A stretch of DNA of 64,000 nucleotides from Alphaproteobacteria bacterium (GTDB lineage Bacteria; Pseudomonadota; Alphaproteobacteria; UBA9219): contig JABDFY010000005.1 in the NCBI GenBank assembly GCA_013286365.1, forward strand, positions 6,364-70,363, in the 5' to 3' direction. The translations under genes and the position numbers were made by a program. Shown one piece after another: positions 35,908 to 55,490 of this stretch. The stretch's first letter is position 1, and the number at the start of each line of letters is the position of its first letter. Under the pieces are notes generated by a model, which was not told where the DNA came from, did no database searches, and saw nothing but the letters and a program-made list of their open reading frames with translations.

Positions 35908-36264
35908 ATGACCAACAACCATCTCACGCGCATATCGTTCCGCGTCAAACCGGACGAACGCAAAAGCATTATTGCCGATGCGAAGCAGGCAGGCATGACG
36001 ACGGGTTCATACGCCCGTTACCGTCTGCTCGAAGTGCCGCAGACAAGGGCCATCTATCGGCGCAGCGAGCTTAAGCGGCTGTTCAAGCATCTCATCGGGC
36101 AGATAGGACGCGTGAGTAACAACATGAACCAGATCGCCTGGAAAATGAACTGCAATATGGTGCTAGCTCCGCTTGACCTTGAACTTCACAGGGAAGGCAT
36201 TACGGCGCTCAAGGAGATGCGCGCGGTTCTTGTGGGCCATCTATTGCAAAATGGCCCATGCTGA
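35908..36264 (+). CDS. mobC: mobilisation accessory protein MobC family
   Basis: 118 aa; LIGQIGRVSNNMNQIAWKMN matches the MobC motif (L...G.IGNNLNQIAR..N); RHH-like N-terminus; immediately upstream of and overlapping relaxase gene. Confidence 0.65.
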   Translation: MTNNHLTRISFRVKPDERKSIIADAKQAGMTTGSYARYRLLEVPQTRAIYRRSELKRLFKHLIGQIGRVSNNMNQIAWKMNCNMVLAPLDLELHREGITALKEMRAVLVGHLLQNGPC

Positions 36265-37400
36265 TCTTTGGTGCTTCCTGCAGCGACTGGAAGGAAAAGG
36301 CCGACTACGCAGAAGATAAAGCCGATAATGAATATGCCAAGCTCCACGAGGTGCAGTGCGAAGGCATTGAGGACGTACAGATGGCCATGGCAGCCATGGC
36401 GGCATTTGCGGTGGGCACACAGTGCGAGAGGTTTCTGTATCATGCCACCATCAACCTCAATCCAGGTGAACGGCTTACGCCTGACCAATGGCGGAAGGCT
36501 ATCGAAACCCTTGAGAAGAATCTGAAGCTGACCGGCCATTACAGAGTCTTTTTCGAGCATATTAAGAAGAACAGGCAGCATTACCATATTTACTGGTCAC
36601 GGATACCACCAGATGGTGGCCCCGCTGTACACATGGGCAACAATTATTATGTCCACCAACGAACAGCCAAAGCTCTTGAACTTGCATTTGGCCTAAAACT
36701 AGCACCACGCGGCGACAAGACAAAACCATCCAAAAAGAAACAGGAGATCAATAACCGTAACAGCCGCCTAAGAGTAAACCCTGAAATCGTCACTAAAGAA
36801 GTGACGAAGCTGTTCAAGGACAGCAAGACAGCCAAAGAGTTCATAGCCAGTCTTAAAATGACTGGCTACATCCTGACACGCGGTAAGAATGGCAGTTATG
36901 TCATCGTCGATAGGCAGGGTGGTTATCACGGCCTTTTGCGCCGCATTAAGGGCGCGAAGCTGGATGATCTAAGGCAAAAATTTCCCGACCTTGAAAAGAC
37001 AGCTTTGCCTTACTTGAGTGATGTCCTTAAAAGCCGGAGTCCCGTGTCAATTCACAATTTCAAACGTGCGGCAGGATCGTTCAAAAGGCCAAGACGAATA
37101 TATAATATGTCGCGCCTGCCGAAAATCAGGCCTCTATTTTACCGGCCACGGCATCTTACGGCTCTTATTCTTCAAGCTATAAGCCGCCATCCGAAGCCAC
37201 AGCGCAAATCCTTTCCTGCTATGTTTGTACGACGGAGAGGAAAGAGAAAACGGAACAAAAACAGCTCGGATTGGAAAACACCATTCCGTCGCCCTGAATG
37301 GGATACAGCGGAGTTGCTTGCCTGGGCATGGGAGAATGGCCGTGCTGATGTGTTAGCGGATTTTGGCATCCATATGCCGCTAGAAACTTTTGAACCTTAG
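36258..37400 (+). CDS. mobA: MOBQ-type relaxase (MobA/RepB' family nuclease domain)
   Basis: N-terminal EKADYAEDKADNEYAK resembles RSF1010 MobA AKADYIQREGKYAR around the catalytic Tyr; 3-His motif QHYHIYWSRI (HxHxxxSRI); basic C-terminal tail. Confidence 0.65.
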   Translation: MLIFGASCSDWKEKADYAEDKADNEYAKLHEVQCEGIEDVQMAMAAMAAFAVGTQCERFLYHATINLNPGERLTPDQWRKAIETLEKNLKLTGHYRVFFEHIKKNRQHYHIYWSRIPPDGGPAVHMGNNYYVHQRTAKALELAFGLKLAPRGDKTKPSKKKQEINNRNSRLRVNPEIVTKEVTKLFKDSKTAKEFIASLKMTGYILTRGKNGSYVIVDRQGGYHGLLRRIKGAKLDDLRQKFPDLEKTALPYLSDVLKSRSPVSIHNFKRAAGSFKRPRRIYNMSRLPKIRPLFYRPRHLTALILQAISRHPKPQRKSFPAMFVRRRGKRKRNKNSSDWKTPFRRPEWDTAELLAWAWENGRADVLADFGIHMPLETFEP

Positions 37401-37495
37401 TTAAACGCATAGCTGAAAATTACTTCAAACCCTGCAGGACGAAAGTTCTGTGGGGATTTTTTGCGTCAACTAAACCCAACCCATGAGGTCAGACC

Positions 37496-38326
37496 ATGAG
37501 TTCATATTATGAACGGATAAAGGAAGCGGCCCAATCCAGCTGGGAAAACGCCACGGCTCTTCTCTGGTGGTTATTTGCCAGATCACCAAAACCCGTAAGT
37601 GCTGTTGGCGCTATAAATGAAGCGGCACTGCCACGCGTAACAAAATCGACATCTTTCTTGCGCTGGCTCTTGACCAAATCACCGAGACTGTTGCGACGCG
37701 GTGTCCAGGGGGTTGTGATTTATGCCCTATCTTATGTAGCGAAAGATACTTTGGACATAGCGCATGAAGAATATCCTGATAATGGGTTTGTGGCTAAGGC
37801 TGACACGGTAGCTAATGCCGCCGTGAAAGCTGAAAATTTTCTGCTTACTGGCGCGACTTCGATAGCGAAAGATATTTACGACTCGATACCAGCACAAGCA
37901 GCGCCATCAAAAGCATCAATACCAACGGCAGCTCTACCATCGGAGCTAACTAAGGCTATCGATGAAAGCTACAAGACGGCAACAGAAAACCCAAATGCCG
38001 CAATAACCATTCCACAGGTGAGCGCGGAACAATTGTTGCCGCCACCTGGAATGCCGATATCACTAACACCGCCTATTATCAATCAACCTATCCGTGAAGC
38101 GGCGTTCATGCCAATTAAGTCAGGACAGCGAAACCGTTCCAATCTCAATGCTGCACTTATGCCACCTATCTCGCCAGAACCAGTCATTCCTGCACTTGCA
38201 CCTGACGGTCTTCCCATCGATGGCGGCTATGATCCTGTAACAGAGATTACTTGGGGGCCGTATGGCAGGCCCATAGAAAAACGCATAATCAGCAATAGAG
38301 CGGCTTTACCATTGGCGGATCGTTAA
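37496..38326 (+). CDS. hypothetical protein with Pro-rich C-terminal half
   Basis: 276 aa ORF downstream of relaxase; no recognisable domain. Confidence 0.3.
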   Translation: MSSYYERIKEAAQSSWENATALLWWLFARSPKPVSAVGAINEAALPRVTKSTSFLRWLLTKSPRLLRRGVQGVVIYALSYVAKDTLDIAHEEYPDNGFVAKADTVANAAVKAENFLLTGATSIAKDIYDSIPAQAAPSKASIPTAALPSELTKAIDESYKTATENPNAAITIPQVSAEQLLPPPGMPISLTPPIINQPIREAAFMPIKSGQRNRSNLNAALMPPISPEPVIPALAPDGLPIDGGYDPVTEITWGPYGRPIEKRIISNRAALPLADR

Positions 38327-38350
38327 AAGCTAAAAGTTTAGATATACACC

Positions 38351-38773
38351 TTACGCTTTTAGTGGACGCTGCCCCAAATTCGAGAAAAACCGAAGCAGAT
38401 AACCATCCAGGTCTGCAATCACAAATTGGCGATTTCCTTTTTCAATTTGGCCCTGGCGATACCAGCGCTCTTCGAGAGGAATAATAAATTTTGTACCGGC
38501 TTTCAATAGCCGTTCATGCAACTCGTTGATATTTTTTACCTCAATCTGAAAATTCACGCCACGGCCATAAGGATGTTCGAGAGGTGCTGTTCTAAAACGT
38601 CGTCCTGGCCCTGCGGCTTCTTCTAACATCAGCTGTACTCCGTCAAGATCGAGATAAGCAAAACGTTCCTCGGGGCGTTCAAATAGAATACTGAAGCCCA
38701 GCACTTCAATATAGAAGGCTAGGGATTTAGTGATGTTTTCAACATCCAATTCCGGTGTAAGTTTAAAAGTCAC
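38351..38773 (-). CDS. VOC-family protein (glyoxalase / bleomycin-resistance fold)
   Basis: 140 aa; LAFYIEVLGFSILFE...AYLDLDGVQLMLEE pattern of bleomycin-resistance/glyoxalase fold. Confidence 0.55.
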   Translation of the reverse strand: MTFKLTPELDVENITKSLAFYIEVLGFSILFERPEERFAYLDLDGVQLMLEEAAGPGRRFRTAPLEHPYGRGVNFQIEVKNINELHERLLKAGTKFIIPLEERWYRQGQIEKGNRQFVIADLDGYLLRFFSNLGQRPLKA

Positions 38774-38817
38774 ATGAACTCCTATAACAATTCGTATCGG
38801 TAGCTTGGAAGTGTCAG

Positions 38818-39555
38818 TTAGTCTTGAGTGAGCTTAATTTCCACTTGTCGTGCAGCATCGAAGAAAGCTTTTTTAGCCTCTACGGAGAATGGGTTCTCGC
38901 GTTCTATGGCGCGGAACAATTCATCCGAGTCATAGCGAACCATTTCGACCATCTGCTGTAGAAGCTCATAAGTCTTCGTTCTGAATTGAAACGGCGGCAG
39001 ATCAAGTTCCACGATAACTTTGGATAAGAGATGGGTTAAGCCTTGAATGTAAGCCATTTCCTTGTCGTGGGATTCTGGTGTTGCTTGCATGACATGCAAG
39101 CCGAGCTTTTCACGGCAGAATTGCTCTACTTCCCTTACATAGTCACCCCGAACGGGGCATATAACAATGTTAAGTCCTGCAATGCTATCTTTGCCGCTTT
39201 GCGGGCCAAACAGAGGATGGGTGCCTACGATTTGAACAGTTGGTGGCAATAGCTCTTTCATCATTTCGACAGGTTTTATTTTTACGGAGGCAACATCGAC
39301 CACCACAGCATCACGCCTGACCATCGGCGCAATATCCGTCAACACTTTACGCAGGCGTTGCACTGGAACTGCCAGCATAATGATTTGACAACCGGCAGCC
39401 ATAGACAGATCGCCGACATGAGCGCCGTGTTCTTGGGCAATACGGTTCATGTCACGATGCGGATCGTGAAGCGCGAGGTCAAAATGCGGAGCCAAATGTT
39501 TGACCGCAAATTCACCAAACGCGCCGACACCAACAATGCCTAAAGAGGTTCTCAC
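38818..39555 (-). CDS. prephenate/arogenate dehydrogenase family NAD(P)-binding protein
   Basis: Rossmann start LGIVGVGAFG; PDH signature GTHPLFGP; 245 aa, with no ACT or chorismate mutase extension present. Confidence 0.6.
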   Translation of the reverse strand: MRTSLGIVGVGAFGEFAVKHLAPHFDLALHDPHRDMNRIAQEHGAHVGDLSMAAGCQIIMLAVPVQRLRKVLTDIAPMVRRDAVVVDVASVKIKPVEMMKELLPPTVQIVGTHPLFGPQSGKDSIAGLNIVICPVRGDYVREVEQFCREKLGLHVMQATPESHDKEMAYIQGLTHLLSKVIVELDLPPFQFRTKTYELLQQMVEMVRYDSDELFRAIERENPFSVEAKKAFFDAARQVEIKLTQD

Positions 39556-39602
39556 AACACGATACCTTAGTTCGTATTAGCTCTTGTTCAGCTAAGTATA
39601 GC

Positions 39603-39887
39603 TCACTTCTTTCGTTTGGCAGTTGGTTTTTGTTTATCAACAGGCAAAAGCGTTACGCCAACAGCTTTCAGCTCGTCTGTGGAAACAGATTTCAGCTCGA
39701 TGAAGTCTACTCCGTGACCGGCAAAGGCTTGTACGAGCTTTTCGATGCTTTTGGCGTGCGGCTTTTTAAAATAGCTGCATTCGATATTTTTTATAGTTTC
39801 AGGAGAAATATTGGCGACCTCGGCAAGCTCAAGCCTTGTCCAGTCTAGGAGTGCCCTTGCCGCTCTAAGTTGTTCGCTCGTTATCAT
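39603..39887 (-). CDS. XRE-family helix-turn-helix protein (short member of local paralog family)
   Basis: MITSEQLRAARALLDWTRLELAEVANISPETIKNIE is an HTH_3-like pattern; N-terminus shared with 51308-51967 and 52662-53357 products and with a remnant at 42686-42802. Confidence 0.55.
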   Translation of the reverse strand: MITSEQLRAARALLDWTRLELAEVANISPETIKNIECSYFKKPHAKSIEKLVQAFAGHGVDFIELKSVSTDELKAVGVTLLPVDKQKPTAKRKK

Positions 39888-39970
39888 GGCTGCAAATCCA
39901 AGCTAAAATAGATTGCTGACGGCTAAGTTCGTCCAGGAGCAGTTCTGTTAAGAAAAGCCCAGGCACTTTC
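39884..39970. repeat. 87-bp direct repeat copy A (3' end of HExxH paralog + intergenic + next start codon context)
   Basis: tcatggctgcaaatccaagctaAaataGattgcTgacggctaagttcgtccaggagcagttctgTtaagaaaagcccaggcactttc; 5 mismatches (uppercase) versus copy B at 41284-41370. Confidence 0.85.
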
Positions 39971-41287
39971 TCCGCAGCGTCTTCGGGCAATTTCAGGCGT
40001 TGCTGGCCCTGCAACAGCCGGAGAGGTTCTTGCAGATTTATCAGCGAATTTCATAGAAGCCCCGTCTGAAGCCGAATATAAAGTAGGCTGTGAAGACTTT
40101 AATAAAGAGGGACAAAAATATGCAGCCGCATCTTTTATAAGCTTTGCGTGATGGCGTACAAGTTCTGTGGTTAGACTGGAGTCTTCGATAATATCGCACA
40201 ATATTGGAAGAGCGATCGCCGGATTATCTCCCTGGGCTTTTCCTACCTCTCTATCAAGTTCGTCAAATAATGGTTTAAGAGAGGTTGGCGGAACATATAG
40301 TCTAGCAAACGTCTTATTTAAGATAGCCGTTTGTAATGCAACTGAGTCTTGTTCAATGGGAATTCCTAATAAACGTCCCTTAACACGCATGCGGATTTCA
40401 GTGTTAGTTAGGTAGTAACTTATGCTGCGCCTTTTTTCTCGTGATGAAAGACCTTGTAAATCAGGAATAAAGTTTATAAGTGGTAAGAAGGGACCAGATT
40501 GCATAACCGGATCAAAACATATTAAGTGTCCTGCTGACGGTTTTATAAAGCCGCTCAAATATCGTGATTTATGCAATACCGGAATTGCATCTCTAATATT
40601 GGCCGCTAGAGCCGGATTGGACTTTTCTACAAATGCTGCTTGAGATTCTATACACTCGTCCGCAAATGATTCTGCGTCATGTTCATATTGTCTGACAATG
40701 CTAGTGTTTACCTCATGTGATAGGCCTCGTCCTTGTAAGGAATGCCCCAGTTCATGAAAAAAAATGTAATGAGTTAGGATACCTTTCGGATATCTTTCTA
40801 AAAAATTCGTTGAACTGAACCCTAGACGATATGCCCATTGGTCAGATTCTGGCATTTGCTCATCAAATATAAAGAGGCATGATAGATATGGAAACATAGT
40901 TCCATTGAGTCTTCGAGGAAAAGGGCCTGGCAAAATTTTCTGGGCCGGTCGTCGAACAATTATATGTAAGTTTGGCCCTGGTTCGTTAAATGCCTCATTC
41001 TGCCAATACCCATTCCATGCTTTTGGTTCTTCTTTTAAAAATGCAGATGATATGTCTGGAAATAGACGCTCAATGGTTGCCCTGACAAACTTTCTTTGTA
41101 CATCCACTTCACTCCCTAAGACATCTACCAAATTTATAACTGCAATTTGTTGTTCCCATGCTTCACTCAATAATAATGAGAAGCTATCATTTGAAAATTC
41201 GTGTCTACGAAACACAAGATCTCTCGCATAATTACGCCACTGTCCAATAAGTGAAGGATCTTGTTTAAGTAGTACAACGTTATTCAT
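39923..41287 (-). CDS. HExxH-motif putative zinc metallopeptidase, paralog 1 (conserved C-terminal tail ...SAWAFLNRTAPGRT)
   Basis: 454 aa; FFHELGHSLQ HExxH motif; shares blocks AVINLxDV, PDxxW, E.xIRxR, YFCPSL and the terminal 15 aa with the two upstream paralogs; no N-terminal signal peptide. Confidence 0.5.
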   Translation of the reverse strand: MNNVVLLKQDPSLIGQWRNYARDLVFRRHEFSNDSFSLLLSEAWEQQIAVINLVDVLGSEVDVQRKFVRATIERLFPDISSAFLKEEPKAWNGYWQNEAFNEPGPNLHIIVRRPAQKILPGPFPRRLNGTMFPYLSCLFIFDEQMPESDQWAYRLGFSSTNFLERYPKGILTHYIFFHELGHSLQGRGLSHEVNTSIVRQYEHDAESFADECIESQAAFVEKSNPALAANIRDAIPVLHKSRYLSGFIKPSAGHLICFDPVMQSGPFLPLINFIPDLQGLSSREKRRSISYYLTNTEIRMRVKGRLLGIPIEQDSVALQTAILNKTFARLYVPPTSLKPLFDELDREVGKAQGDNPAIALPILCDIIEDSSLTTELVRHHAKLIKDAAAYFCPSLLKSSQPTLYSASDGASMKFADKSARTSPAVAGPATPEIARRRCGESAWAFLNRTAPGRT

Positions 41288-41370
41288 GGCTGCAAATCCA
41301 AGCTATAATAAATTGCCGACGGCTAAGTTCGTCCAGGAGCAGTTCTGCTAAGAAAAGCCCAGGCACTTTC
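41284..41370. repeat. 87-bp direct repeat copy B
   Basis: Near-identical to 39884-39970; a degenerate third copy lies around 42838-42900. Confidence 0.85.
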
Positions 41371-42600
41371 CCCTGGTTGTCTTGCTCCACTGGAAGCTGG
41401 TGCCGGTCTAGTCGCAATAGGAACGCGATCAAGCTTCGGAACATGTGCGAACAAGGATGGACAGAAATAAGAGGACGCATCAAGTAATATATCCGCATGA
41501 TGCCTTGTAAAGGGACAAGTAATTTCGCCAGAACCTATTAGTCCTGGAATTTCTGGTAGCAATTGAGTTCCTGCAGCATTGCTTGCGATCCTATTCCAAG
41601 TTTCTAAACAGGAAGATAATTCTGCTGTAAGGGTGCCTCCATCTACATGCCACGTTTTAAGAATTTGCTGAAGATTTGAGGAATTTAATTTTATTTGTTT
41701 TTTGTCATGGATAGCTGAAATGCGAACACGAATCTCCATTTCGGTAATCCAGCTAGCTAAAGCAAGCTTGCGTTCGAATGTTAAGTGCTTCATTTCGTCA
41801 ACAACTGGCGGGAATTGACCAGTTAAATTGCCGTAGTCAAAAATGGAGTGGTATTCTGGGTCATATCTCAAGAATCCCCTAAGTGTTCTAGCCCATTTAA
41901 AGGCTGTACAGACTTCTCGAATTGCCTTGGCTTCGAGTGGATTTACTGCATCAAGAATAAGCGCTTGATTACCCGCCTGTTCCAACGCAAATTGATCGGC
42001 ATCGCGTTCTGCAATCCAACGTCCTTGGGGGCCATACTGTTCTTGTTGTAATTGAATAAAATGTCCCAATTCATGGAGAAACATTAAATCTTTAACAGCT
42101 TTGCTCTTAGGAAAATTTTCAAGATTATTTCCCAAATCGGTAAAATATTTCCATTCCTGAGCTGGTGTCCAACGCCTATCAGGAGCAAGGAGCAAGCCCA
42201 TAATTATTAGTCGATCTCCCGACAGTCTCGGAGGAAAAACGCTATTTCGAAATAATTGGGGTTGAAGACTATGTGCTAAAACAATAGCTCCTGGGCCCAA
42301 AGGTTTGCGTTGCAGATTATTCCAATAATGGTGCCAGCCAGATTTAAGAGGTGCTACCTCTCGAGGAAACATCTGCTCATAAGATCGTCTTAAATAGCTT
42401 GTGTTTGCAGCAAACTGTTCATCAGACGGTAATTGTATATGTTCTGGGTTGGCTGAAGAGAATGGTACATCAGCTAAGTTTATTACAGCTATTCTCTGCC
42501 CCGTACTCTGAAAGAGTAAACGTGAGAAATCAGCAGCTGAAGCATCATTCCACCGAAAGAGTAATGATGTGGCCTCTCGTTGAGCTAGTATTTGGTTCAT
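41323..42600 (-). CDS. HExxH-motif putative zinc metallopeptidase, paralog 2 (C-terminal tail ...ESAWAFLSRTAPGRT)
   Basis: 425 aa; MFLHELGHFIQ; same conserved blocks as paralogs 1 and 3. Confidence 0.5.
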   Translation of the reverse strand: MNQILAQREATSLLFRWNDASAADFSRLLFQSTGQRIAVINLADVPFSSANPEHIQLPSDEQFAANTSYLRRSYEQMFPREVAPLKSGWHHYWNNLQRKPLGPGAIVLAHSLQPQLFRNSVFPPRLSGDRLIIMGLLLAPDRRWTPAQEWKYFTDLGNNLENFPKSKAVKDLMFLHELGHFIQLQQEQYGPQGRWIAERDADQFALEQAGNQALILDAVNPLEAKAIREVCTAFKWARTLRGFLRYDPEYHSIFDYGNLTGQFPPVVDEMKHLTFERKLALASWITEMEIRVRISAIHDKKQIKLNSSNLQQILKTWHVDGGTLTAELSSCLETWNRIASNAAGTQLLPEIPGLIGSGEITCPFTRHHADILLDASSYFCPSLFAHVPKLDRVPIATRPAPASSGARQPGESAWAFLSRTAPGRT

Positions 42601-42685
42601 GTTGTTCTTATTATCATCCTAATACTAGGCTGTAAATTTGGATATATGTTGGCCAATAGCTGTCTCATTCGGATTATTTTTCAAA

Positions 42686-42802
42686 TTAACCAAGAAATTT
42701 AACCAAATGAAGGGTGAAAGGTAACAAGAGTATATCTTGATTGTCAGGAGTTAGACCGTAACTTCCTACCCTTGCTGCTCTTAGTTGATCGCTTGTTATC
42801 AT
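42686..42802 (-). pseudogene. remnant of XRE-HTH gene start (MITSDQLRAAR...), degenerate
   Basis: Minus-strand ATG at 42800-42802 gives MITSDQLRAARVGSYGLTPDNQ..., matching MITSEQLRAARALLDW of 39603-39887 but decaying after 11 aa; the ORF-track ORF 42686-42958 is a chimera. Confidence 0.35.
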
Positions 42803-42839
42803 AATTACAAAAATCCAATATCTAAATAAATGTGAATGG

Positions 42840-44402
42840 CTAAGTTCTTCCCGGGGATGTTCGTCTAATAAAAGCCCACGCAGTTTCTTCGGGCAGCTTA
42901 TGTGGATTCTTATCAGCTTCTGGCCTCGCGGCTTCGGATGTCGGCGGGATAGCAGCATTTCCTACTGAAATACTTGCAGGCAAAGCTCTTCGGGCCAAAA
43001 GCTCTTTTGCCGTCGATTGAGCAACCTGCGCCGCCGCCGGAGATTTCGCTGCTGAATGGGCAGCTGCTGCAAGAAGTGCATTTATAAGTTGGTCTGCAGG
43101 AGATACGGGATTTGGGGCTAGATTTGTATGCGAAGATCGAACTATTCCCATATTTCGACCGTATGTAGAAAAGGGCACCATATCCAGTTGTGCATCAAGA
43201 GATCTGGGACAAAAATAGCCCGCTGCCCTGGCGACCAGGTTCGCACCTTCTTCAGTGATAGGGCAGGATATCCTTTGTTGCGATAGCAGTGCTTTTAATG
43301 CTGGCAATTTTTGTTGTGGCTTTACCAGCAAAGCCCACTGCGGCGACATCGCTGCATCAAAAAGCGCTCTGAGGTTTGGGGGAATTTTATCTTGTCTAAT
43401 GTTAGTCCATTGCTCACTTAGCCATAAACATCCGCATGACTTCATGTCCTCAGAATTTTGAATTATTTGAATATTAGCCAATAAAGCAATGCTGCGTGCG
43501 CGTAGTTCCAGATTAACAAGCCAATTTGTCATCGCTGATCTCTGTACACCGGACATCCGCGAATAGAGTTGGGTTAGGCCGCTAGGCACAAAGGATGATA
43601 TCAAATTATCGTCGTGGAAAATGACTGTGTCATGAAGCTGAGCGTCATGAAATCCAGAAAGGGTCCGCGCTTCTGGAACCTTTTGCAAAGTTTCATCCAC
43701 TAGCTTGGATTGATCAGGAGATATTGAGCTTATTAATTCTCTGCAATGACTAAGTGTTTCAGGGGCAAAAAAGTTAGCATCAATCTCTCCCAGCCAAGCC
43801 CTGGCATCACTTGCCATGGTCCTAGCCGTATGCGGTTCAGCAGTTTGAAGCGTTTCCGCCAGCTCATGGAAAAATGTGTGGTGTTTTATGCCGTTGCCTT
43901 TTGGGCAGTTTTCCAAAGTGTCAGGCGTCAAACCTGTTATATGACACCATAACTGTTCCCCAGACCAACGCCGGTCTGGAGTTAAAATCACAGAAAAAGT
44001 TGGGGCAAATTTTCCGGGCAACCTGTGCGCAAAGGACGTTTGCGGCACTTGTGCAAGAGGCTTATGGCCCATTCTAATATTCATCGGTTGTGGATTGAGG
44101 GCAGTCCTTGTCCACGTATCTTCCCATTCGGGTATGACTTTTGTTTCAACAGGGAAAATGCCTTCTGCGGCCTGTTTTACCCATGCGGCACGATGGGCAA
44201 ACTCTTCATGGGTATAAAATCTTCTGGTCCATGCCGGAGTACTATGCGGCAACTCCTGCAAATTAATAACCACTGTAGGGCGGCCTATGATTTTTGTTAC
44301 CAACCGCGAGAAATCAACATGCGGCATTGTTTCCCAGTTTAGCAACCCAGTGATTAATCGTTCTTTTCCGCTAAACTTGCGATTTTCTTCCTGCATTTGC
44401 AC
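42840..44402 (-). CDS. HExxH-like paralog 3 with degenerate motif (HELAE) and long Ala-rich insert; C-terminal tail ...ETAWAFIRRTSPGRT
   Basis: 520 aa; TFFHELAETLQ (second His replaced by Glu), possibly catalytically inactive; conserved blocks ILTPDRRW, YFCPRSL, terminal tail. Confidence 0.5.
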   Translation of the reverse strand: MQMQEENRKFSGKERLITGLLNWETMPHVDFSRLVTKIIGRPTVVINLQELPHSTPAWTRRFYTHEEFAHRAAWVKQAAEGIFPVETKVIPEWEDTWTRTALNPQPMNIRMGHKPLAQVPQTSFAHRLPGKFAPTFSVILTPDRRWSGEQLWCHITGLTPDTLENCPKGNGIKHHTFFHELAETLQTAEPHTARTMASDARAWLGEIDANFFAPETLSHCRELISSISPDQSKLVDETLQKVPEARTLSGFHDAQLHDTVIFHDDNLISSFVPSGLTQLYSRMSGVQRSAMTNWLVNLELRARSIALLANIQIIQNSEDMKSCGCLWLSEQWTNIRQDKIPPNLRALFDAAMSPQWALLVKPQQKLPALKALLSQQRISCPITEEGANLVARAAGYFCPRSLDAQLDMVPFSTYGRNMGIVRSSHTNLAPNPVSPADQLINALLAAAAHSAAKSPAAAQVAQSTAKELLARRALPASISVGNAAIPPTSEAARPEADKNPHKLPEETAWAFIRRTSPGRT

Positions 44403-44492
44403 CCCTAAAATTTTGCCCTACACAAATTTCAAATAACATTATTAAAAAATTAGCGTTCCAAATTCGAAGTCGTTTAATCCGCCAATACAGCC

Positions 44493-47400
44493 TCAACCAG
44501 GCGTCAAGGCGTGATAAACAACCTCAGTGCCACTATGTCCGTCGGAACTTAAACCGAAACTTCCCGGATATGAACCAGGTACTATGATTGTATCCGTGCC
44601 AGCAGAACTGTTATGCAAAGTGATTGTTCCCGCTGTGTCCGCAGCATTCTCTTTAAAATTGAACGCTGTAGAGAATAGCGGAAAGTTTTTGATATCAATA
44701 AGGCTGCCGGGCTTGGCAAGATTTTCAATAATAAGGTTAGCTACGTCGGATGTAACCTGGAAGGTCGTTGAGCCAATGGTCGAGCCAATCAAGGTGTCGC
44801 CGCTACTACCGTTGAGTGTCGTTCCTGCGTTAGCAGCTATGAGTGTTTGCTTGGGAGCATCGATGAAGGTTTTAAATCCACGTATCTGATCAATATAGGT
44901 TTTTCCGGCTTCTACATAAGTGGCCGTTCCGGCAACCGTATTAACGGTCACTGCAGCGGCCACTTTATTGAAGCTCAAGGTTGGATTATTAACCCCAGAT
45001 GAGACCAACTTAACTGAGACTTCGTTGGGGGCGAGTGTCGTCTGTTCGGTTACCGCTTGAGCCACAGCAGCCGGTTTAGGAGGATCAACCATGTATGTGC
45101 CGCTAACCCCATCAGAAGAGAGAACATAGCTTCCTGCTGTAAAATTGCCATTTATATAGAACGATGTGCTTTGCCCTACGGTGTTTGAAAGACTGAACAA
45201 AGTTTGATTACCGGCGACAAGACTGGCCGTAACTGTGGCCGTTGTCGGAGCAAAGTTGGTTATGTCAATGACATCACTGGTGGGCGTATAATTGTTAATT
45301 GTAATGGGAGAGAGTGCGCTATTGAATTGAAAGGTCGTATTGCCACCTACGTAGCCGTACATCGTCGTTGAACTTGCATCTGCAATCAGTGTTTGCCCGG
45401 GGGCTGTGGCTGTAATTACGGCACCTGGGGATGTTGATACCAGCAAATCACTGCTGTAAGTCACACTGGGGTTGGGCAATTCGATATTATTACCCGTACC
45501 CATGATTGAAAGCTGCACCCCAGTGCCGCCGCCTGGATCACCATTCCGTCCAATCGTATTATTGTTGCCTATAATCGTGAGGTTGACGCCTGTTCCGACA
45601 AGAACCAAGTTGTTTGATCCAACCAAGATATTATTTGCGTCCCCTGCAACAAAATTGATGGTCGAGTTTGATAAATTGACGATGTTGCCCTTACCGGCCA
45701 CCATCGGATAGTCACCGTTGCCGCCAGTTATCAGATTGTTTGGGCCAACTACGGTTGAGCTAACATTGGCACCAAATGTTATGTAATTGCCGCCCCCGTT
45801 AATCCATGCATTCTTGCTTCCAGCATTATAGGCTATGGTGGCGTTCGATTCTGAGGTTGTGATGTTGGGGCCGCTTGCCACTATCGTTGTTCCGCCACCA
45901 CCACTGGGATCGCCGTTTACCCCTATGGTAAAGCCGGTGCCATAGGCCGCTAAGTTGACGCCCGGACCAGTGAGTATTAGGTCACTGCCGCCATAAACGG
46001 TATCGAAGGCACTACCTCGAACAAAATTAAGGGCGCAGTTTGATAAATCGACAGTCGTATAGCTGCCATCGATGAGGATATTTGCGCCAACACCGCCACC
46101 CGGATCGCCATTACTCCCTACAGTATTATAGTTGCCGACAAGCGAGGCCCCTATGCCGGTACCTACAAGGAACAAATCGTTATTGCCGTAGATCATTTGG
46201 TTAAGCGACCCAGCAGGGCAATTGATGGTGGAATAATCAAGCGTAGCTGTGTCACCGTTGCCCGCTAGCATCAGAATATCGCTGTTTCCTGTTATCGTAT
46301 TATGCGAGAGACCTGTGGCCCAAACGATCACGCTAGAGCCATAACCAATACTGATCTTGTCGTTAGCCCCGTTGATAGTCTCGTTGACGACGCCAGGGGC
46401 AATTTCAAAATCTACATTGGATACTGTTGCTGTGTTTTCACTATCTTTCAGCATTATTTCGAGAGGTGAGACGACCTCTCCCTGCACGAATTTGGCGTAC
46501 TCTGTCATCTGCGCTGAGGTAAACACAACTGTGGGTGTTCCTGGGTCGGTTAGACTAACCGCAAGGGAAACACCTTCAGCCGCAAGCTTCTGATCGGTTG
46601 GAATGCCGCTTATCATGTTTGCCAAAGATTCGCTGATGCTTAAGTTATGCGGACCCGTCATTGTGACTTGATCAAGCCCTATGGCCTGAGCTTGGGATAA
46701 TGCATTCATAAATGTCGAAAGAGCGTTAGGATCGCTTGACGTCGTCACGGCAGCGAGATAGCCCAAGGGATCAGCGACATATTGACTATAGATAGAAGCC
46801 GCATCGACGTTCGTTATTAGATTGGCAAGCGAACCATCAAGGCTTTGGTTGAAGGCATACATAACAATGGGGTTGCCCCCAATGATTGTAATGTTTTGCA
46901 ACCAGTTCATTACGGCTGCATCGATGCAATCTGTTGCATTTGTAAAACCGGCATCTTGGGGCGGGGCATAACCTGGCGCTATATCTCCAGGTGCAAAAAA
47001 TAATTTGTCTTTGAAAACGCCAAACGAATAGACCGATGAAGGCCCCCAGCCTATTACTGTTCCACCGGTAGACTTAATGATGTCGTTAAACATAGTCGTA
47101 AAGTCGTTACCCATGTTTATGGCGGTCTGTAGATCACTATTGGGACCACCTACATTGCCGCCGTTGTCAAAAGTTTCTTTAAATTCAATTGATACGTTTT
47201 CGGCGTTAATACCAACTTGGGCTACGGCGTTTGGCCCAACCGTTGGTACACTGCCGCCGCCAATGAAATTTTCGAAGGCATTAAGAGCATCACCAGCCAA
47301 GGTTCCTATGGCCTCGCCTACTGCTGAAGCAATTGGCCCCCAGTATGACCCTATTGCCGCACCCAGAGATCCTCCGACTTCCGCTGCTGTGTTATTGCTT

Positions 47401-49571
47401 GGAATAATTTCATTGATGACCATTGATACCGCTATATCCAGGCCTGCCGTCTCGAAGCTAGTGCCGAAGGTATCTCCAAACGTAGTAGCATCAGGCAAAG
47501 CGTTCGCCGATGAAACATTCGTGATCCCAAATTGCTCTAGCGTTGATTGGGCTAGCGCTGTGTCAGCCAGTTGGCTGGTTACTATATAGGCCGAGAGCTG
47601 TTGAGCCGTTGCCTGAAATGCAGCAGCACCAACGAGAGAGCCAAGCTGAGTTGGGATAAACCCCGTCAGTTTGGCAAGATCGGCACCGGCAATAGAGCCT
47701 AGAATGCCGCTCGCCATGTTACTGATCGAGGCTGCAACATCAGTCGCAAAATCTGGCGGGTTAGCCGTGGGCGTAATGGCCTGTTCGGCTGCATCAATGC
47801 CCGCTTTGATAAAAGCCTGGCTGACGACGGAGGCCGGAATGTTATGTGCGAAAGCGAAGTCAGAGACAATAATCCCTGCTACGGCATTAGCTATATATCC
47901 TCCCAATATTGTCGATTCAGCAGGATTGCCATCCAAGCTGGAGCCGAGGGAGGGCAATTGAAGACCGTCTGAATTGCTGAAATCAAGCTTGATCAGAAAG
48001 GCCCCTGTAATGGGGTCGTAATATGAAACTGAGGTGCCGTCTGCCGTGGTTGTGGTTTGCTGGGTTAAGATACCATTGTTGGTATTGACGACCTTTATGG
48101 AGTTGGTGCCATCGGCATTAGTATTATAGGTAGCATAAGAATTGCCTGAACTACTGACCTGTACACCGCCGACATTCTGGCCAGCAGCATTATTAATGGC
48201 GACGGTCGTACCATCCGATGAATTTGTGATATTGAAGGTTGAATTGGGGCTAGATGCATTAAGTGGAACGTTCACTAATCCTTGTCCTCCCGTGAGAACG
48301 AGCCACGCATTATTAGAAGTCGGATCAATCAGAATTTGTGGCGTCGATCCTGCCGTTGAGAAGTCCGATAAAGTGATATCCGGGCCGCTATTGCTAATAA
48401 CAGGTGATGCGCCATCAGGAATGACGAAATAATTACCGCCCGATAGAAATGTCATCTCAGAGCTGGCACTGGGTATAGACAAGACGCTGGTAGTGTCGGA
48501 CGTTGGATTGGTGAAAGCGGCAGAAACGCCGCCACCAGTCAACGGAGTGACGACAGGCTCATCATTTTTTCCGAAACCTACAACTTCCTTGTTGGCTGAT
48601 AATGTGCCGCCACTAGCATTAGTTTGCTCAATATAATTGGAGCTAGGATTTAGAAAATCTTGGACATTTAAAATTGCCGATGCCGCATTGCTGCCGTCAG
48701 CGGCAAGATCCAAACTTACGCCTGGCGCAAGATTATAAATGCTCGCACTACTTGGTTGCGCTAAGTAATCTTTGAAATCGATTTGTTGAGGGTTTGTCGG
48801 GCCCAAGAGAAACTGTTGTAAAGTAATACCTTCCTGTTGAATGTACTGATCAAGTTCTTGAAGGTTGTTTTGTGCGGCAGTGAGAGCTGTATGAAATGCT
48901 CCCGCCAACGAATCTTCCTGTAATCCAAGTACATGGGTATAAGTGATGCTAACGCTATCGGTAGCAAATGCGTCAGCTTGATTTTGTGTATAACCACGCA
49001 AAAGTAACGCGGAAAAATAGTCTTGAGTTGTTGAAAGTGCGATGAGGTGATAAGCATCGGCCAGCCCTTGTTCAGCAGGCGTAAGCTGGTCATAAAACGA
49101 GGTATCGGAAAAGCCAGTTGCAATGCCAGGAGCTGCGCCTGCCCAAGAGTACTGTGCAACCCCTAGTGCGGTGACACCTTTTTGTGCATCGACACTTTGA
49201 ATTTGTTGAAAATCTGGAATTACTCCGTTTCCGTTAATTATATCCGTAAAAAATGCTTTTGCTATACTATTGGATGAGTTCTGTTCTTGGGGGCCAAAGA
49301 GGTTGATTATTTCACCAAGTTGATCAAGGACAGCAGCTTGGTTAACGGCGCGAATAGCGACAGCATCAAATGTTGAAGCCCCCGAATTTACGTCATAAGC
49401 GATGCTTATCCAATTTAATATCTGCTGGTCAGCAGGGCTTGGGTTTGGGTTTTGTGTCTTCAAGTCTTGAAGCACCGCATTATATCCAACCGCATAATTA
49501 GGAAGATTAGGATTATTCCTGAGTTGATTAAGTAATAAGAGCGTATTTGCTGATATTTGCATATTAACCAC
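44493..49571 (-). CDS. giant (1692 aa) Gly/Asn/Thr/Ser-rich repeat protein, probable beta-helical surface/secreted protein without N-terminal signal peptide
   Basis: Tandem about 50-aa repeats (NFV.G....L.G.N.L.L.G.GVNL...G...T.G.NGDPGGG.G); no Sec signal (MVNMQISANTLLLLNQ...); start overlaps upstream 227-aa secreted-protein gene by 8 nt. Confidence 0.55.
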   Translation of the reverse strand: MVNMQISANTLLLLNQLRNNPNLPNYAVGYNAVLQDLKTQNPNPSPADQQILNWISIAYDVNSGASTFDAVAIRAVNQAAVLDQLGEIINLFGPQEQNSSNSIAKAFFTDIINGNGVIPDFQQIQSVDAQKGVTALGVAQYSWAGAAPGIATGFSDTSFYDQLTPAEQGLADAYHLIALSTTQDYFSALLLRGYTQNQADAFATDSVSITYTHVLGLQEDSLAGAFHTALTAAQNNLQELDQYIQQEGITLQQFLLGPTNPQQIDFKDYLAQPSSASIYNLAPGVSLDLAADGSNAASAILNVQDFLNPSSNYIEQTNASGGTLSANKEVVGFGKNDEPVVTPLTGGGVSAAFTNPTSDTTSVLSIPSASSEMTFLSGGNYFVIPDGASPVISNSGPDITLSDFSTAGSTPQILIDPTSNNAWLVLTGGQGLVNVPLNASSPNSTFNITNSSDGTTVAINNAAGQNVGGVQVSSSGNSYATYNTNADGTNSIKVVNTNNGILTQQTTTTADGTSVSYYDPITGAFLIKLDFSNSDGLQLPSLGSSLDGNPAESTILGGYIANAVAGIIVSDFAFAHNIPASVVSQAFIKAGIDAAEQAITPTANPPDFATDVAASISNMASGILGSIAGADLAKLTGFIPTQLGSLVGAAAFQATAQQLSAYIVTSQLADTALAQSTLEQFGITNVSSANALPDATTFGDTFGTSFETAGLDIAVSMVINEIIPSNNTAAEVGGSLGAAIGSYWGPIASAVGEAIGTLAGDALNAFENFIGGGSVPTVGPNAVAQVGINAENVSIEFKETFDNGGNVGGPNSDLQTAINMGNDFTTMFNDIIKSTGGTVIGWGPSSVYSFGVFKDKLFFAPGDIAPGYAPPQDAGFTNATDCIDAAVMNWLQNITIIGGNPIVMYAFNQSLDGSLANLITNVDAASIYSQYVADPLGYLAAVTTSSDPNALSTFMNALSQAQAIGLDQVTMTGPHNLSISESLANMISGIPTDQKLAAEGVSLAVSLTDPGTPTVVFTSAQMTEYAKFVQGEVVSPLEIMLKDSENTATVSNVDFEIAPGVVNETINGANDKISIGYGSSVIVWATGLSHNTITGNSDILMLAGNGDTATLDYSTINCPAGSLNQMIYGNNDLFLVGTGIGASLVGNYNTVGSNGDPGGGVGANILIDGSYTTVDLSNCALNFVRGSAFDTVYGGSDLILTGPGVNLAAYGTGFTIGVNGDPSGGGGTTIVASGPNITTSESNATIAYNAGSKNAWINGGGNYITFGANVSSTVVGPNNLITGGNGDYPMVAGKGNIVNLSNSTINFVAGDANNILVGSNNLVLVGTGVNLTIIGNNNTIGRNGDPGGGTGVQLSIMGTGNNIELPNPSVTYSSDLLVSTSPGAVITATAPGQTLIADASSTTMYGYVGGNTTFQFNSALSPITINNYTPTSDVIDITNFAPTTATVTASLVAGNQTLFSLSNTVGQSTSFYINGNFTAGSYVLSSDGVSGTYMVDPPKPAAVAQAVTEQTTLAPNEVSVKLVSSGVNNPTLSFNKVAAAVTVNTVAGTATYVEAGKTYIDQIRGFKTFIDAPKQTLIAANAGTTLNGSSGDTLIGSTIGSTTFQVTSDVANLIIENLAKPGSLIDIKNFPLFSTAFNFKENAADTAGTITLHNSSAGTDTIIVPGSYPGSFGLSSDGHSGTEVVYHALTPG

Positions 49572-50247
49572 CAGCTTTAATTGATTTTATGAATTGACTG
49601 ATGTTTGCCCGAATATCCTCCCAATGAGGCATTAGGGAGTCATTAAAATCGCACAGCAGAGTAACTCCTGGTGTTAAATCAAAATAAGTTTGACACCTTC
49701 TGGCTGCAGGATCTTTCTCCTTCGCGCATTCGACAGCGATGTTTTCCTTCGTAGTACCGTCAGCTATATAATAAATATCTTCGGCACCGCTAAGAGTGTA
49801 ATGTTTTGAAATAAACAGCCCATAACGTTTATCATGTTCGGAAATACCTTTTTCTGCTGCAATAACATTATCGGCGATATAAGACGCGTGCGAAAATAAT
49901 TTAGTGCTTTTTAGTTCTATAATGTTTGGTGAATGCCAGCGTTTGCGGTAGACAAACTCATCTATTGTCTTCTCGGTCGCTCCATTGAAGTCGGGGAAGT
50001 GTATTACTGCTTGAAAGAACACCGTACCGTCGGAACTATAGATTGCTGTTTCAAGATAATTTCTTGGAATATTAAGTACTGCACCATTGATGTGAATGGT
50101 AACTAAATGTGTTTCTACTGACGGGGTGTAAACAATGTATTTTTCTGAAACCGAGTCGGCTTCTGCATAGACTGGATGCGATCCCAGTAGGCAAACGCAC
50201 GATATGAGAAAAATAATCTTTGAAAGATAAAGTTTAGATAGTTTCAT
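49564..50247 (-). CDS. secreted hypothetical protein co-transcribed with the giant repeat protein
   Basis: Signal peptide MKLSKLYLSKIIFLISCVCLLGSHPVYA; 227 aa. Confidence 0.45.
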   Translation of the reverse strand: MKLSKLYLSKIIFLISCVCLLGSHPVYAEADSVSEKYIVYTPSVETHLVTIHINGAVLNIPRNYLETAIYSSDGTVFFQAVIHFPDFNGATEKTIDEFVYRKRWHSPNIIELKSTKLFSHASYIADNVIAAEKGISEHDKRYGLFISKHYTLSGAEDIYYIADGTTKENIAVECAKEKDPAARRCQTYFDLTPGVTLLCDFNDSLMPHWEDIRANISQFIKSIKAGG

Positions 50248-51307: not shown

Positions 51308-51967
51308 CTATAAATGAAATGGAGAAGCAGTATCCCAAAGTAAAAAGAAATTGCTTCTGTAAGCTTGCGCTAGGCTCGACATGTCAAATACAACGAATTT
51401 AAAGGTTGAATTGACCTGCTCCATAATGATTGCGTGTTTGCCGCCGTACGTGAAAAATGAAATGGGGCCAATATGTTGTTTCGGAATTATCCGGAGTTGC
51501 AGCTGTGGAACAAGCAATGAGCGTTCTGGAACAGAGGACAAGAGGCATTTAATGGAAGAAAACTCACCTAATTGCTCAAAGCTGTCGTGAGCTGCCAGAC
51601 ATAATTGTTGCATTATTTCTGGCGACTTGAATAAAGCAATGACTTCATTGCCATCTTCCTTGATAGTCTGGAACACATCTTCAAAGAACAAGTCACAACT
51701 GTCCGGCCCCTGATAAACTTTGACCTCATCTAAGCGGCGTCTTATGCCTTCTGGTTCGATAAACTCCAATCCGGCATTTTCGATTGCTTTGCGAATTTCG
51801 TTGGCTGTTGTGCTGCGCGGTGACATACCGCCCGACTCCATATTGCGGACAGTCGTGACGGACAAGCCTGATATGGTCGCTAAATCATCCTGCGACCAAT
51901 CAAGAAGCGCTCTTGCTGCTTTAATTTGTCCTGAGCGTACTGGGTACATCTGATATATATTCTTCAA
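51308..51967 (-). CDS. XRE-family HTH regulator with about 130-aa C-terminal domain (paralog family member)
   Basis: IKAARALLDWSQDDLATISGLSVTTVRNMESG HTH_3 motif; C-terminal domain paralogous to that of 52662-53357 product. Confidence 0.5.
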   Translation of the reverse strand: MKNIYQMYPVRSGQIKAARALLDWSQDDLATISGLSVTTVRNMESGGMSPRSTTANEIRKAIENAGLEFIEPEGIRRRLDEVKVYQGPDSCDLFFEDVFQTIKEDGNEVIALFKSPEIMQQLCLAAHDSFEQLGEFSSIKCLLSSVPERSLLVPQLQLRIIPKQHIGPISFFTYGGKHAIIMEQVNSTFKFVVFDMSSLAQAYRSNFFLLWDTASPFHL

Positions 51968-52148
51968 GGGTTTGTACGGCTAAATTGACATTGTTTAAAG
52001 CTTCAAGCGCCCGTTTTAAGCGAGTCTCTTCATCCATATGAGTGATGTAATCTTTTATCCTGGCGAGCTTTTCTATGGTCAGAAGCAGATCAAATGCCTG
52101 ATTGCTGCCAAAACGCCTGACGAGATCATTGTAAGTTAATTGATCCAT
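51921..52148 (-). CDS. small hypothetical protein
   Basis: 75 aa, helical; upstream of and overlapping the HTH regulator. Confidence 0.3.
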   Translation of the reverse strand: MDQLTYNDLVRRFGSNQAFDLLLTIEKLARIKDYITHMDEETRLKRALEALNNVNLAVQTLEEYISDVPSTLRTN

Positions 52149-52154
52149 GACGCT

Positions 52155-52331
52155 TTTTCTCAGGCCGCTGCGTATTGCTGTTGCAAGTTGTCTTGCATTA
52201 GAACGGCCCAGCGTTCCTCTAAAGGAATAGCCATGTTGTAACGAATACCCTCGCTGCGCTCAATTCGCTCGACGATGTCTTGAACCCAGCTTTCGCCATG
52301 GCGAGCTACAAATTTTTCAAATTCCAGCATG
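52155..52331 (-). CDS. small hypothetical protein (58 aa), below ORF-track cutoff
   Basis: Hand-translated: MLEFEKFVARHGESWVQDIVERIERSEGIRYNMAIPLEERWAVLMQDNLQQQYAAA; stop overlaps start of 51921-52148. Confidence 0.25.
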
Positions 52332-52538
52332 TGTGTGCTCCTAAATGCTCGTGCGACTGAATGTGCTTTCCGTTCGAAATATGCGCTAAACGCTTGATTC
52401 TCTTATTTTTAGCTCTCAAAAATGGGTAACTATCGATATTGTGAAGGGAATATAGCGACTAAAATTGTTGAAAGCAATGATAAAACATGCATTTTTACGA
52501 TCATAATTATTCAATCTATTAAATATGTATGGACAAAC

Positions 52539-52564
52539 CATGCATAATACCTGATAAATGCATG
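52539..52564. promoter_or_regulatory. perfect inverted repeat CATGCAT-N12-ATGCATG in divergent promoter region between two XRE-HTH paralogs
   Basis: ccATGCATaatacctgataaATGCATgt; a third ATGCAT at 52486-52491; AT-rich 330-bp intergenic region. Confidence 0.35.
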
Positions 52565-52661
52565 TTGTTACCCATACTATGTTTAACAATGTATAAAATA
52601 AACATGACGTATGTATTCACTCGGAGTAATAACCCGTAAGAAAGCAAGTTAAGGAGTCGGT

Positions 52662-53357
52662 ATGTCCATTGGACGTCAAATAGGCGCAGCACGCGGTCTG
52701 CTTCGATGGTCGGGTGCCGTGTTGGCTGAAAAAGCGGGGCTGACACGCGATACGATTAATAAAATCGAATCCGATGCCGTGCAACCGCGCGAAGGCACTA
52801 TTGCCGACATTATACGCGTCTTTGATGAGAACGGCGTTGAGTTTACGGAAAATTCCGGCGTTCGTATGAAACCCCAAGGCATTGAAGTTTTAATCGGTCA
52901 AGAAGGTCTTCAACGGTTTTTTGACGGCGTTTACGAATACGCCAAAAAACATGGCGGAACGATTATGCAGCTTGGTATTGACGAGAATCTATTCTGGGCC
53001 ATGGGTGTTGAATTTTCGAATGCTCACAGAAAACGCATGACTGAATTAGTGAAAGAGAGAAAAGACATTAAAGTTCTGGCGATTATCTGCGAAGGAGACA
53101 CAAATTTTGTTGCCTCCGATTACAACCATTATCGCTGGATATCTAAGGAACTCTTCGCCGCCGTGCCTTTCTACATATATGGTGAGTGTCTAGCGATTAT
53201 GAATTTCCAAACTGTACCGGCCCCGACAATCGTTTTGCACAAGTTTCCGGCTATAACAAATGCCTATCGCAAGCAATTTGAAGCCATGTGGAATTTGTCA
53301 CGTGAACCCGATGTATCGCAAAACGCAAAGTCACCACAAACTGCCAGGAAGAAGTAA
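52662..53357 (+). CDS. XRE-family HTH regulator with C-terminal domain (paralog family member)
   Basis: IGAARGLLRWSGAVLAEKAGLTRDTINKIES HTH_3 motif; stop overlaps start of the methyltransferase gene (TAAATG). Confidence 0.5.
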   Translation: MSIGRQIGAARGLLRWSGAVLAEKAGLTRDTINKIESDAVQPREGTIADIIRVFDENGVEFTENSGVRMKPQGIEVLIGQEGLQRFFDGVYEYAKKHGGTIMQLGIDENLFWAMGVEFSNAHRKRMTELVKERKDIKVLAIICEGDTNFVASDYNHYRWISKELFAAVPFYIYGECLAIMNFQTVPAPTIVLHKFPAITNAYRKQFEAMWNLSREPDVSQNAKSPQTARKK

Positions 53358-54179
53358 ATGACCGCCTTACAAGTTCTGCGAGACGCCCCTTATGACTATG
53401 CAACTGCCGTATCCGTGGCCGTCGAAGCGGCTGATTTTGAGAGAGAATTCAATTGTCCAGAGGAATCACAGCGATACGCCATTGCTTTAGAACATCTGGT
53501 CTTCAGCAGACTTCGCAATGGTCATTCTAGTCCGAATATAGACGAATTTGGTTCAGGCACAGGTGAGCCCGTTATACAGGCTATCCGAAATTCAAGATTT
53601 TCAGGCATCGTTCACGGATATGAAATAAATCCAGACGCTTCCGAAACAGCAAAACGGCATATTGAAGAAAGCGGACTCGCTCAAAGATATGTTGTTCACA
53701 CCGCATCATTCTTTGAGAGTAAGCACTCGCAATCCGACTATTTGATAGCAAATCCGCCCTATCTCCCTTGCATAGAAGCAGACAGAAAACGACTTATTCT
53801 TTCAGATTTATGCGGCGGGAAAGAAGGAACCCATGTAAGTGAACAGTTATTATCAAGCGGTTATCTAAACGTCTTTCTTGAGGTATCGAGTTACTCAAAT
53901 CCAGTTGCTTTGATTAAATATGCCCAACAAAGAGGATATAGAATATCTGATTTTATGGTCGTGCCTTTGGAATTCGGCGTTTATAGCAATCAAGATTTCG
54001 TTAAAGAAAGAATTCTCAAAATGAGAGAAGCCGGAAGAGCATTTTGTTCGGACAGCCATTATCTCGTTGGAAGTGCGCTTTTTACAAAAGGAGCTAACGA
54101 GAAACTAGATTTATCACCCAACTTTTTAGCTGCTTTGACTTCTATAGGTCGTCCAGGCGCAAGAGCGCCAATCCTTTAA
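53358..54179 (+). CDS. class I SAM-dependent methyltransferase with NPPY motif (HemK/PrmC-like or N6-adenine MTase-like)
   Basis: Motif I DEFGSGTGE, motif IV LIANPPYLP; 273 aa. Confidence 0.6.
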   Translation: MTALQVLRDAPYDYATAVSVAVEAADFEREFNCPEESQRYAIALEHLVFSRLRNGHSSPNIDEFGSGTGEPVIQAIRNSRFSGIVHGYEINPDASETAKRHIEESGLAQRYVVHTASFFESKHSQSDYLIANPPYLPCIEADRKRLILSDLCGGKEGTHVSEQLLSSGYLNVFLEVSSYSNPVALIKYAQQRGYRISDFMVVPLEFGVYSNQDFVKERILKMREAGRAFCSDSHYLVGSALFTKGANEKLDLSPNFLAALTSIGRPGARAPIL

Positions 54180-54195
54180 ATACTGCCAGAATTAA

Positions 54196-55335: not shown

Positions 55336-55490
55336 TGAATTACGCCGCATCTCACCGGCTGAGCAAACTACGGCGATATATTACGTAGCATTCTCACTCG
55401 TGGCTCGTCGCATAACAAGCAGTAAGGCGACGACCCAGCTAAACATCCGCAGCCTTATTCCATAAAGATAAATCATAATTTTCCACTTAA

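Follow-up and report, generated by a model that had tools for sequence, protein, structure and literature searches.

Three open reading frames (ORFs) lie in tandem on the minus strand of a 64,000-nucleotide (nt) stretch of alphaproteobacterial DNA (contig JABDFY010000005.1, positions 6,364 to 70,363), which is referred to below as the window. We analyzed the proteins encoded by this array, designated P454, P425 and P520, with respect to their HExxH motif and to a C-terminal tail common to all three. The genes occupy positions 39923–41287 (P454, 454 amino acids, aa), 41323–42600 (P425, 425 aa) and 42840–44402 (P520, 520 aa). The motif reads HELGH in P454 (40742–40756), where EHDAE starts 19 residues past the second His, and also in P425 (42061–42075; H176, E177 and H180), with Q183 and E198 further on. 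P520 carries HELAE (43854–43868) and EIDAN. The start of P520 is ambiguous: the protein has 520 aa if read from GTG at 44402 and 518 aa from ATG at 44396, the start called in public assemblies. The three proteins align collinearly at pairwise identities of 28–32%, and their bodies are 25–30% identical. The original prediction of three tandem paralogs was thus borne out by the minus-strand ORFs, the collinear blocks and the HELGH, HELGH and HELAE motifs, all as described. By inspection, no signal-peptide-like hydrophobic stretch was seen at any of the three N-termini, in agreement with the same prediction.

Located 35 nt downstream of P454 is a gene for an XRE/HTH_3 regulator of 94 aa (39603–39887, minus strand; Pfam HTH_3, E = 1.1e-5; PADLOC control protein, E = 1.1e-8), which resembles the CapH- and control-protein-type helix-turn-helix (HTH) models of PADLOC. 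A copy of the start of this gene, intact or decayed, had been reported behind each of the three paralogs. A decayed copy was indeed detected behind P520, but behind P425 only the spacer and ATGA are present, and the ATG there is the start codon of P454. The copy behind P520 forms a minus-strand ORF of 38 aa (42686–42802), of which the first 11 codons match the XRE start; 34 nt (42769–42802) are 88% identical to 39854–39887. It opens with MITSDQLRAAR, compared with MITSEQLRAAR in the XRE protein, and over the 11 codons there are three synonymous changes and one conservative change. This pattern suggests that the second XRE copy was functional for long and was truncated late. The 38-aa ORF may be either the remnant of that copy or a small ORF that is still functional.

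A rare protein family with a metallopeptidase signature

An exhaustive hidden Markov model (HMM) profile search was performed against 1.84 billion cluster representatives (clusters at 50% identity), and gave 36 matches, 33 of them outside the window. When ten of these were looked up, one carried the label "Alphaproteobacteria bacterium", and all of the few protein names were "hypothetical protein". A word-indexed protein search recovered a single relative besides the proteins of the window, and the tail and AVINL patterns found no relative among GTDB genomes. There was no match by tblastn to plasmids and phages with P425 or to plasmids with the family protein P0010, none by megablast between window positions 36000–50000 and plasmids, and nothing significant in a viral fold search against BFVD. 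The paralogs had no family match in Pfam, NCBIfam or PADLOC. The family is previously undescribed and very rare. Sequence searches of the PDB with both profiles yielded no match with E below 0.1. The best PDB match, at E = 0.1, aligned family profile positions 333–384 (C-terminal helices, ...ITDPLT..A.LVLDAA.YF.PSL) with the N-terminal region of AcrIF24 (PDB 7elm); this likeness was rejected as probably spurious and due to chance.

In the alignment of 34 family sequences, the H, E and Q of the motif and the downstream E are invariant, giving the signature HExxHxxQ...E.DAD; at the second His, the Ala of DAD and several structural residues, conservation is at least 90%. The invariant Glu of E.DAD lies 17, 19 and 22 residues past the motif in the three paralogs. 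Other conserved blocks of the family are PDRRW, ELR.R and YF.PSL. The HELAE of P520, as originally read, is real, and represents the sole loss of the second His among the 34 aligned members. One relative, P0026, carries HEIGGH in place of HExxH, a spacing (HExxGH) typical of DPP III.

Three zincin models of Pfam each touched the segment from HExxH to the Glu helix in a different relative, all far below threshold: PF04228 (Zn_peptidase, YpfJ-like; E = 0.026), DUF6782 (E = 0.0074) and PF06114 (M78; E = 0.077). For PF06114, the relative concerned scored 13.2 bits against a cutoff of 22, and none of the window paralogs matched any of the three models. In addition to the low scores, the family differs from these groups in that its body is much larger and includes a distinct C-terminal helical lobe.

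Predicted structure and proposed catalysis

A first AlphaFold2 run with the three sequences gave a predicted local distance difference test (pLDDT) of 59.6, which was too poor for use. The second run, with the 34-sequence alignment, gave a model of P425 with pLDDT 89 and a predicted template modelling score (pTM) of 0.87. The model starts with a three-stranded sheet, and is followed by helix 168–181 carrying HELGH and helix 191–219 carrying E198. Accordingly, HExxH, present throughout the family except for HELAE in P520, sits on the active-site helix, and the invariant Glu of E.DAD is placed on the following helix as the putative third-ligand Glu. Beyond these, the model contains a helical C-terminal lobe and then a Pro/Ala/Ser-rich tail extension of lower confidence with a short helix at 413–420; pLDDT is about 60 at residues 390–420 and 44 for the last five.

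The best Foldseek neighbors of this model were gluzincins. The top two were dipeptidyl peptidase III (DPP III, M49), neither of which was significant, with less than half of the protein covered. Structure prediction had been proposed as a check on the HExxH region, and a zincin-like fold around HELGH is supported by the invariant family motif, the gluzincin topology of the model and gluzincins as best neighbors. These findings support the zincin reading in silico, and P454, P425 and P520 probably represent a new family of gluzincin-like metallopeptidases outside M49, M78 and PF04228. Since the signature is clear and the predicted structure is confident, the family could be entered in Pfam or MEROPS and is directly testable.

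For P425, the motif and the model suggest that Zn2+ would be held by H176 and H180 of HExxH and by E198 on the next helix, with E177 as the general base. A substrate peptide would be bound in the cleft between the N-terminal alpha/beta lobe and the C-terminal helical lobe, as in DPP III. P520 would lack one His ligand, and its catalysis is probably impaired or altered.

The closest M49 structures were PDB 5zum, 5na6/5na8, 3fvy and 3csk. M49 enzymes are characterized by the motifs HEXXGH and EEXR(K)AE(D), which are replaced in the present family by HExxHxxQ and E.DAD, apart from the HEIGGH of P0026. DPP III also gave no sequence-level match in either Pfam or the PDB, and the matched DPP III chains are 540–720 aa long, as against about 400–500 aa for the proteins of this family.

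The 90-nt repeat block and the age of the array

A direct repeat covering the 3' ends of the genes had been noted as 87 bp long. The repeat is real, but its length is slightly greater, at 90 nt. Each full block consists of the last 16 codons, TAG, a spacer of 35 nt and ATGA. Copy 1 (39884–39973, minus strand) contains the end of P454 and the ATGA of the XRE gene, and copy 2 (41284–41373, minus strand), 94% identical to copy 1, contains the ATG that starts P454. Copies 1 and 2 agree perfectly over at most 30 nt in a row, and the unit between them measures 1400 bp. The spacer thus constitutes the translation-initiation region of two different downstream genes. Copy 3 (42801–42890, minus strand) shows 63% nt identity and encodes the tail EETAWAFIRRTSPGRT; its spacer is decayed. 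The 48-nt core of the repeat and the 22-nt core of the spacer were each found only at copies 1 and 2 within the window, and the same searches in 100 shuffles gave no match, so that a chance match can be dismissed for the repeat, as can a dispersed element.

Between P454 and P425, nucleotide identity is 95.8% in the tail block and 44.7% in the gene body. Where residues are identical, the codons also agree at 14 of 15 positions in the tail and at 51 of 109 positions in the body (Fisher p = 6e-4). The edge between the homogenized block and the gene body is sharp. As codon identity in the tail exceeds that in the body and the boundary is sharp, copies 1 and 2 appear to have been homogenized recently. 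The sequences point to recent gene conversion or recombination confined to the tail, the spacer and the start codon.

The gene bodies look old. After removal of the tails, the blastp score of P425 was 161 bits against the foreign homolog P0006, 139 bits against P520 and 121 bits against P454, indicating that P425 is nearer to P0006 than to either paralog of the window. The three proteins are mutually as distant as they are from tail-less homologs of other genomes. In a neighbor-joining tree, the trio was monophyletic in 0 of 300 bootstraps, and the trio plus P0006 and P0007 was recovered in 73%, although this topology is only indicative because the distances are near saturation. An expansion of the array by recent unequal crossing-over had been proposed; a recent origin was borne out for the 90-nt 3' block that copies 1 and 2 share, and not for the gene bodies. 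We propose that the near-identity over 90 nt arose from recent recombination of the 3' end and spacer, without recent gene duplication. The XRE gene would have travelled with an ancestral unit of one paralog gene and one XRE gene, rather than being a conserved partner of the family.

Conservation of the C-terminal tail

P454, P425 and P520 all end in the 16-residue sequence [EG]E[ST]AWAF[LI]xRTxPGRT. In copy 3, 11 of the 16 residues are identical to copies 1 and 2, as compared with about 26–30% identity in the body. Only 6 of these 11 residues use identical codons, a proportion equal to the body baseline, and the other five differ by synonymous changes. The replacements in copy 3 are conservative (G/E, S/T, L/I, A/S and N/R). 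Since copy 3 keeps the peptide at the baseline level of synonymous divergence, its codons show the tail to be under purifying selection as a peptide and not as DNA. The suggestion that the tail might be encoded by a spreading repetitive element unrelated to protein function was removed by this evidence.

The array provides a natural experiment, in which a single 16-residue peptide is retained by three paralogs of about 28% identity, with re-homogenization of two copies at the DNA level. The divergence of the bodies and the retention of the peptide mark the tail as a functional short linear motif. The tail was absent in the 33 relatives, and a degenerate DNA pattern for it gave no match in JGI metagenomes. 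The new finding is a rare family of gluzincin-like proteins, together with a conserved tail that is specific to one lineage.

C-terminal extensions as such are common to all family members. They run 12–51 residues past YF.PSL, are rich in Pro, Ala and Ser and poor in aromatic residues, and most of them have one aromatic residue near the end. Ala is the last residue in 11 of 31 family members (assumed background, 12%; binomial p about 6e-4). These Ala and aromatic C-termini may represent a family-wide degron or anchor. Because the extensions share the Pro/Ala/Ser richness, the late aromatic residue and the Ala ends, the AWAF tail of the trio may be a more sharply defined form of a C-terminal anchor common to the family. 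In P520, the linker from the folded body to the tail is Ala-rich and about 105 aa long.

Genomic context of the array and its relatives

Chromosomal genes (purL, znuABC) and a mobile island occur together in the window. The best matches of PurL reach no more than 73% identity and come from metagenome-assembled genomes labelled Alphaproteobacteria or Rhodospirillaceae. The island includes a MobA/VirD2-type relaxase gene (36258–37400, plus strand; Pfam Relaxase, E = 6e-18), adjoined by genes for a NikA-like protein and a Toprim primase. Further genes code for an ArdC-like zincin (55502–56752), a Cas4/RNase H-like nuclease (56829–58256), a phosphoesterase (58282–59685) and the R subunit of a type I restriction enzyme (59961–62993). 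Neither an integrase nor a tRNA gene nor an att site was identified, and the relaxase as query found no relatives in metagenomes. We favor the reading that the array is cargo on an integrated mobilizable island.

Nine relatives were examined at their loci. They lie on apparent alphaproteobacterial chromosomes, adjoining sdh/suc, prfA/prmC, clpP/clpX, proS/icd or ORFans. None has an adjacent XRE gene, and the loci are single or, once, a tandem pair. In the latter case (locus L002), P0032 at 10001–11332 is followed by a second family member at 11316–12425, overlapping by 17 nt (LHELGHARQ...ERGADRFA), so that tandem duplication of the family is found also in another alphaproteobacterial chromosome.

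Role of the tail

We assign a probability of about 0.55 to the interpretation that the array represents an old, diverged family of cytoplasmic gluzincin-type proteins, carried as island cargo, with a tail selected for binding to a common site. In the proposed arrangement, the folded body of each paralog would be followed by a disordered linker, rich in Pro, Ala and Ser and about 28 to 105 residues long, that ends in a short helix-forming AWAF[LI]xRTxPGRT. The tail would act as a tethered short linear motif kept by selection, most likely holding all three paralogs to one site. The enzyme itself could provide this site, with the tail plugging the cleft or making a regulatory contact, or the site could belong to a common partner, for example a protease, an adaptor or an export coupling protein; the choice among them is a matter of inference. 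We place the larger part of the weight on a partner of another identity, and regard intrinsic regulation as tentative and export or translocation as doubtful. If the partner is a component of export or conjugation, the tail would represent a new means by which mobile elements transport proteins as cargo; a partner that is the enzyme itself or a housekeeping protease would place the trio in an ordinary regulated peptidase family.

Several points weigh against this interpretation. No sequence-level match to peptidase families was obtained, even from the family consensus, and the model of P425 rests on an alignment of 34 sequences. Metal binding and proteolysis are predictions from sequence and model. 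The tree that accompanies the age estimate was built on near-saturated distances. Finally, the tail is known only in these three proteins, and a partner therefore cannot be named by co-occurrence.

As a special case of binding to a common site, the tail may be an intrinsic regulator, either a ClpXP/Lon degron or an autoinhibitory cleft plug, a tentative possibility that ranks first among the alternatives. The disordered extensions found in all family members, with their Ala ends and single late aromatic residues, are consistent with this role, and C-terminal tails that block the cleft occur in minigluzincins. Two of these, proabylysin and projannalysin, consist of about 100–110 residues and are autoinhibited by the C-terminal tail; they share with the present family a common gluzincin site and a tail able to reach the cleft, although docking of the tail here is only a possibility by analogy. 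However, the tail of the trio ends in the polar PGRT, unlike ClpX motifs of the LAA type, and a stretch of 16 conserved residues exceeds the usual length of a degron. A tail serving purely as a latency plug would not be required in the HELAE paralog, which is probably impaired yet retains it, and docking of the tail in the cleft is hypothetical.

Translocation comes next, and we consider it doubtful. The paralogs had been described as effector-like, and under this explanation they would be secreted or translocated, with the tail serving as a C-terminal signal, for instance toward a type IV coupling protein during transfer of the island. The lack of a signal peptide, a short C-terminal motif that comes after a disordered linker and has two or three Arg among the last 8–9 residues, and an island with relaxase, NikA-like and ArdC-like zincin genes are in line with such a role. 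Alphaproteobacterial relaxases, toxins and Beps share one type of type IV secretion signal, and short basic or hydrophobic C-terminal signals are common in type IV secretion (PMC6509941). The tail fits this loose description of an unstructured, basic or hydrophobic C-terminus, but the description is not specific. Bartonella Beps and BID-domain toxins and relaxases (PMC6509941, PMC5675462) offer a functional analogy only, as tandem diverged alphaproteobacterial paralogs with a shared C-terminal element and a link to conjugation-derived machinery. Here, in contrast, there is no BID domain, and the conserved element is 16 residues instead of about 100. No type IV secretion system, coupling protein or other secretion gene was detected among the window proteins scanned. 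The effector-like character was not upheld, since the nine relatives are tail-less chromosomal genes among housekeeping genes (clpPX, prfA, sdh, proS), and relatives were found neither on plasmids nor on phages. Translocation of the paralogs is a prediction only, and the effector reading is unsupported, though it keeps some probability.

Among six-frame ORFs of the window of at least 80 aa (n = 120), AWA[FWY] occurs in four: the three tails and the C-terminal region of the relaxase (residues 355–358 of 380), which reads ...TAELLAWAWENGRAD.... This motif was rejected as evidence for translocation, because the similarity between relaxase and tail was no better than in shuffles (p = 0.43–0.93) and the relaxase C-terminus is not conserved among homologous relaxases.

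In a bolder form, which we regard as improbable, the tail would be a compact targeting peptide that brings diversified zincins, one of them catalytically altered, to one machine such as the coupling protein of the island relaxase. The proteases would then travel into recipients as anti-defense or establishment factors, like ArdC-type zincins, and the 90-nt block would serve as portable homology for cassette swapping.

Highly improbable is a pairing of ImmA/IrrE-like anti-repressor proteases with the XRE repressor as a triplicate regulatory switch of the island. In its favor are the HExxH...E.DA[DN].FA pattern, which resembles the COG2856/M78 signature, the CapH- and control-protein-like XRE gene next to P454 with its decayed counterpart behind P520, and the relative that touches PF06114. 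Pairing with XRE regulators is typical of M78 proteins and is seen in the window, but it is not conserved in the family, being absent at all nine relatives examined. Moreover, no paralog of the window matches PF06114, and the paralogs are 2–3 times the size of ImmA or IrrE.

The least probable explanation is conservation at the DNA or RNA level, as a regulatory or translation-initiation element of 90 nt or a selfish repeat in which the peptide is irrelevant: the near-identity of copies 1 and 2 spans both the coding part and the spacer, the block stops exactly at the next start codon, and the spacer serves two different genes, but copy 3 keeps the peptide with a decayed spacer, and the explanation fails because RNA folding of the repeat was no better than in shuffles (z = 0.29), compensatory change was seen in only 2 of 11 predicted RNA pairs, Rfam gave no match for the block, no further copies of the cores exist in the window, and promoter and terminator scans stayed at background level.

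Other features of the window

The array is located on one strand between a long ORFan and the XRE gene, a PDH-like gene and a glyoxalase-like gene. The ORFan (44493–49571, minus strand; 1692 aa) precedes the array by 90 nt in the same orientation and is possibly in one transcription unit with it. It had no match in Pfam or NCBIfam, and among 5.8 billion proteins it matched only itself. Gly, Asn, Ser and Thr are abundant in its sequence, in which NGDPGGG.G-like stretches recur. Two longer XRE-family genes are located at 51308–51967 and 52662–53357, and a leuB/icd-like dehydrogenase gene sits among the island and flank genes at 51308–62993. The GC content is 41.6–43.9% across the array (40001–44000) and 47–49% in the adjacent flanks; most of the window ranges from 43 to 50%, with one lower bin at 20001–22000 (39.7%).

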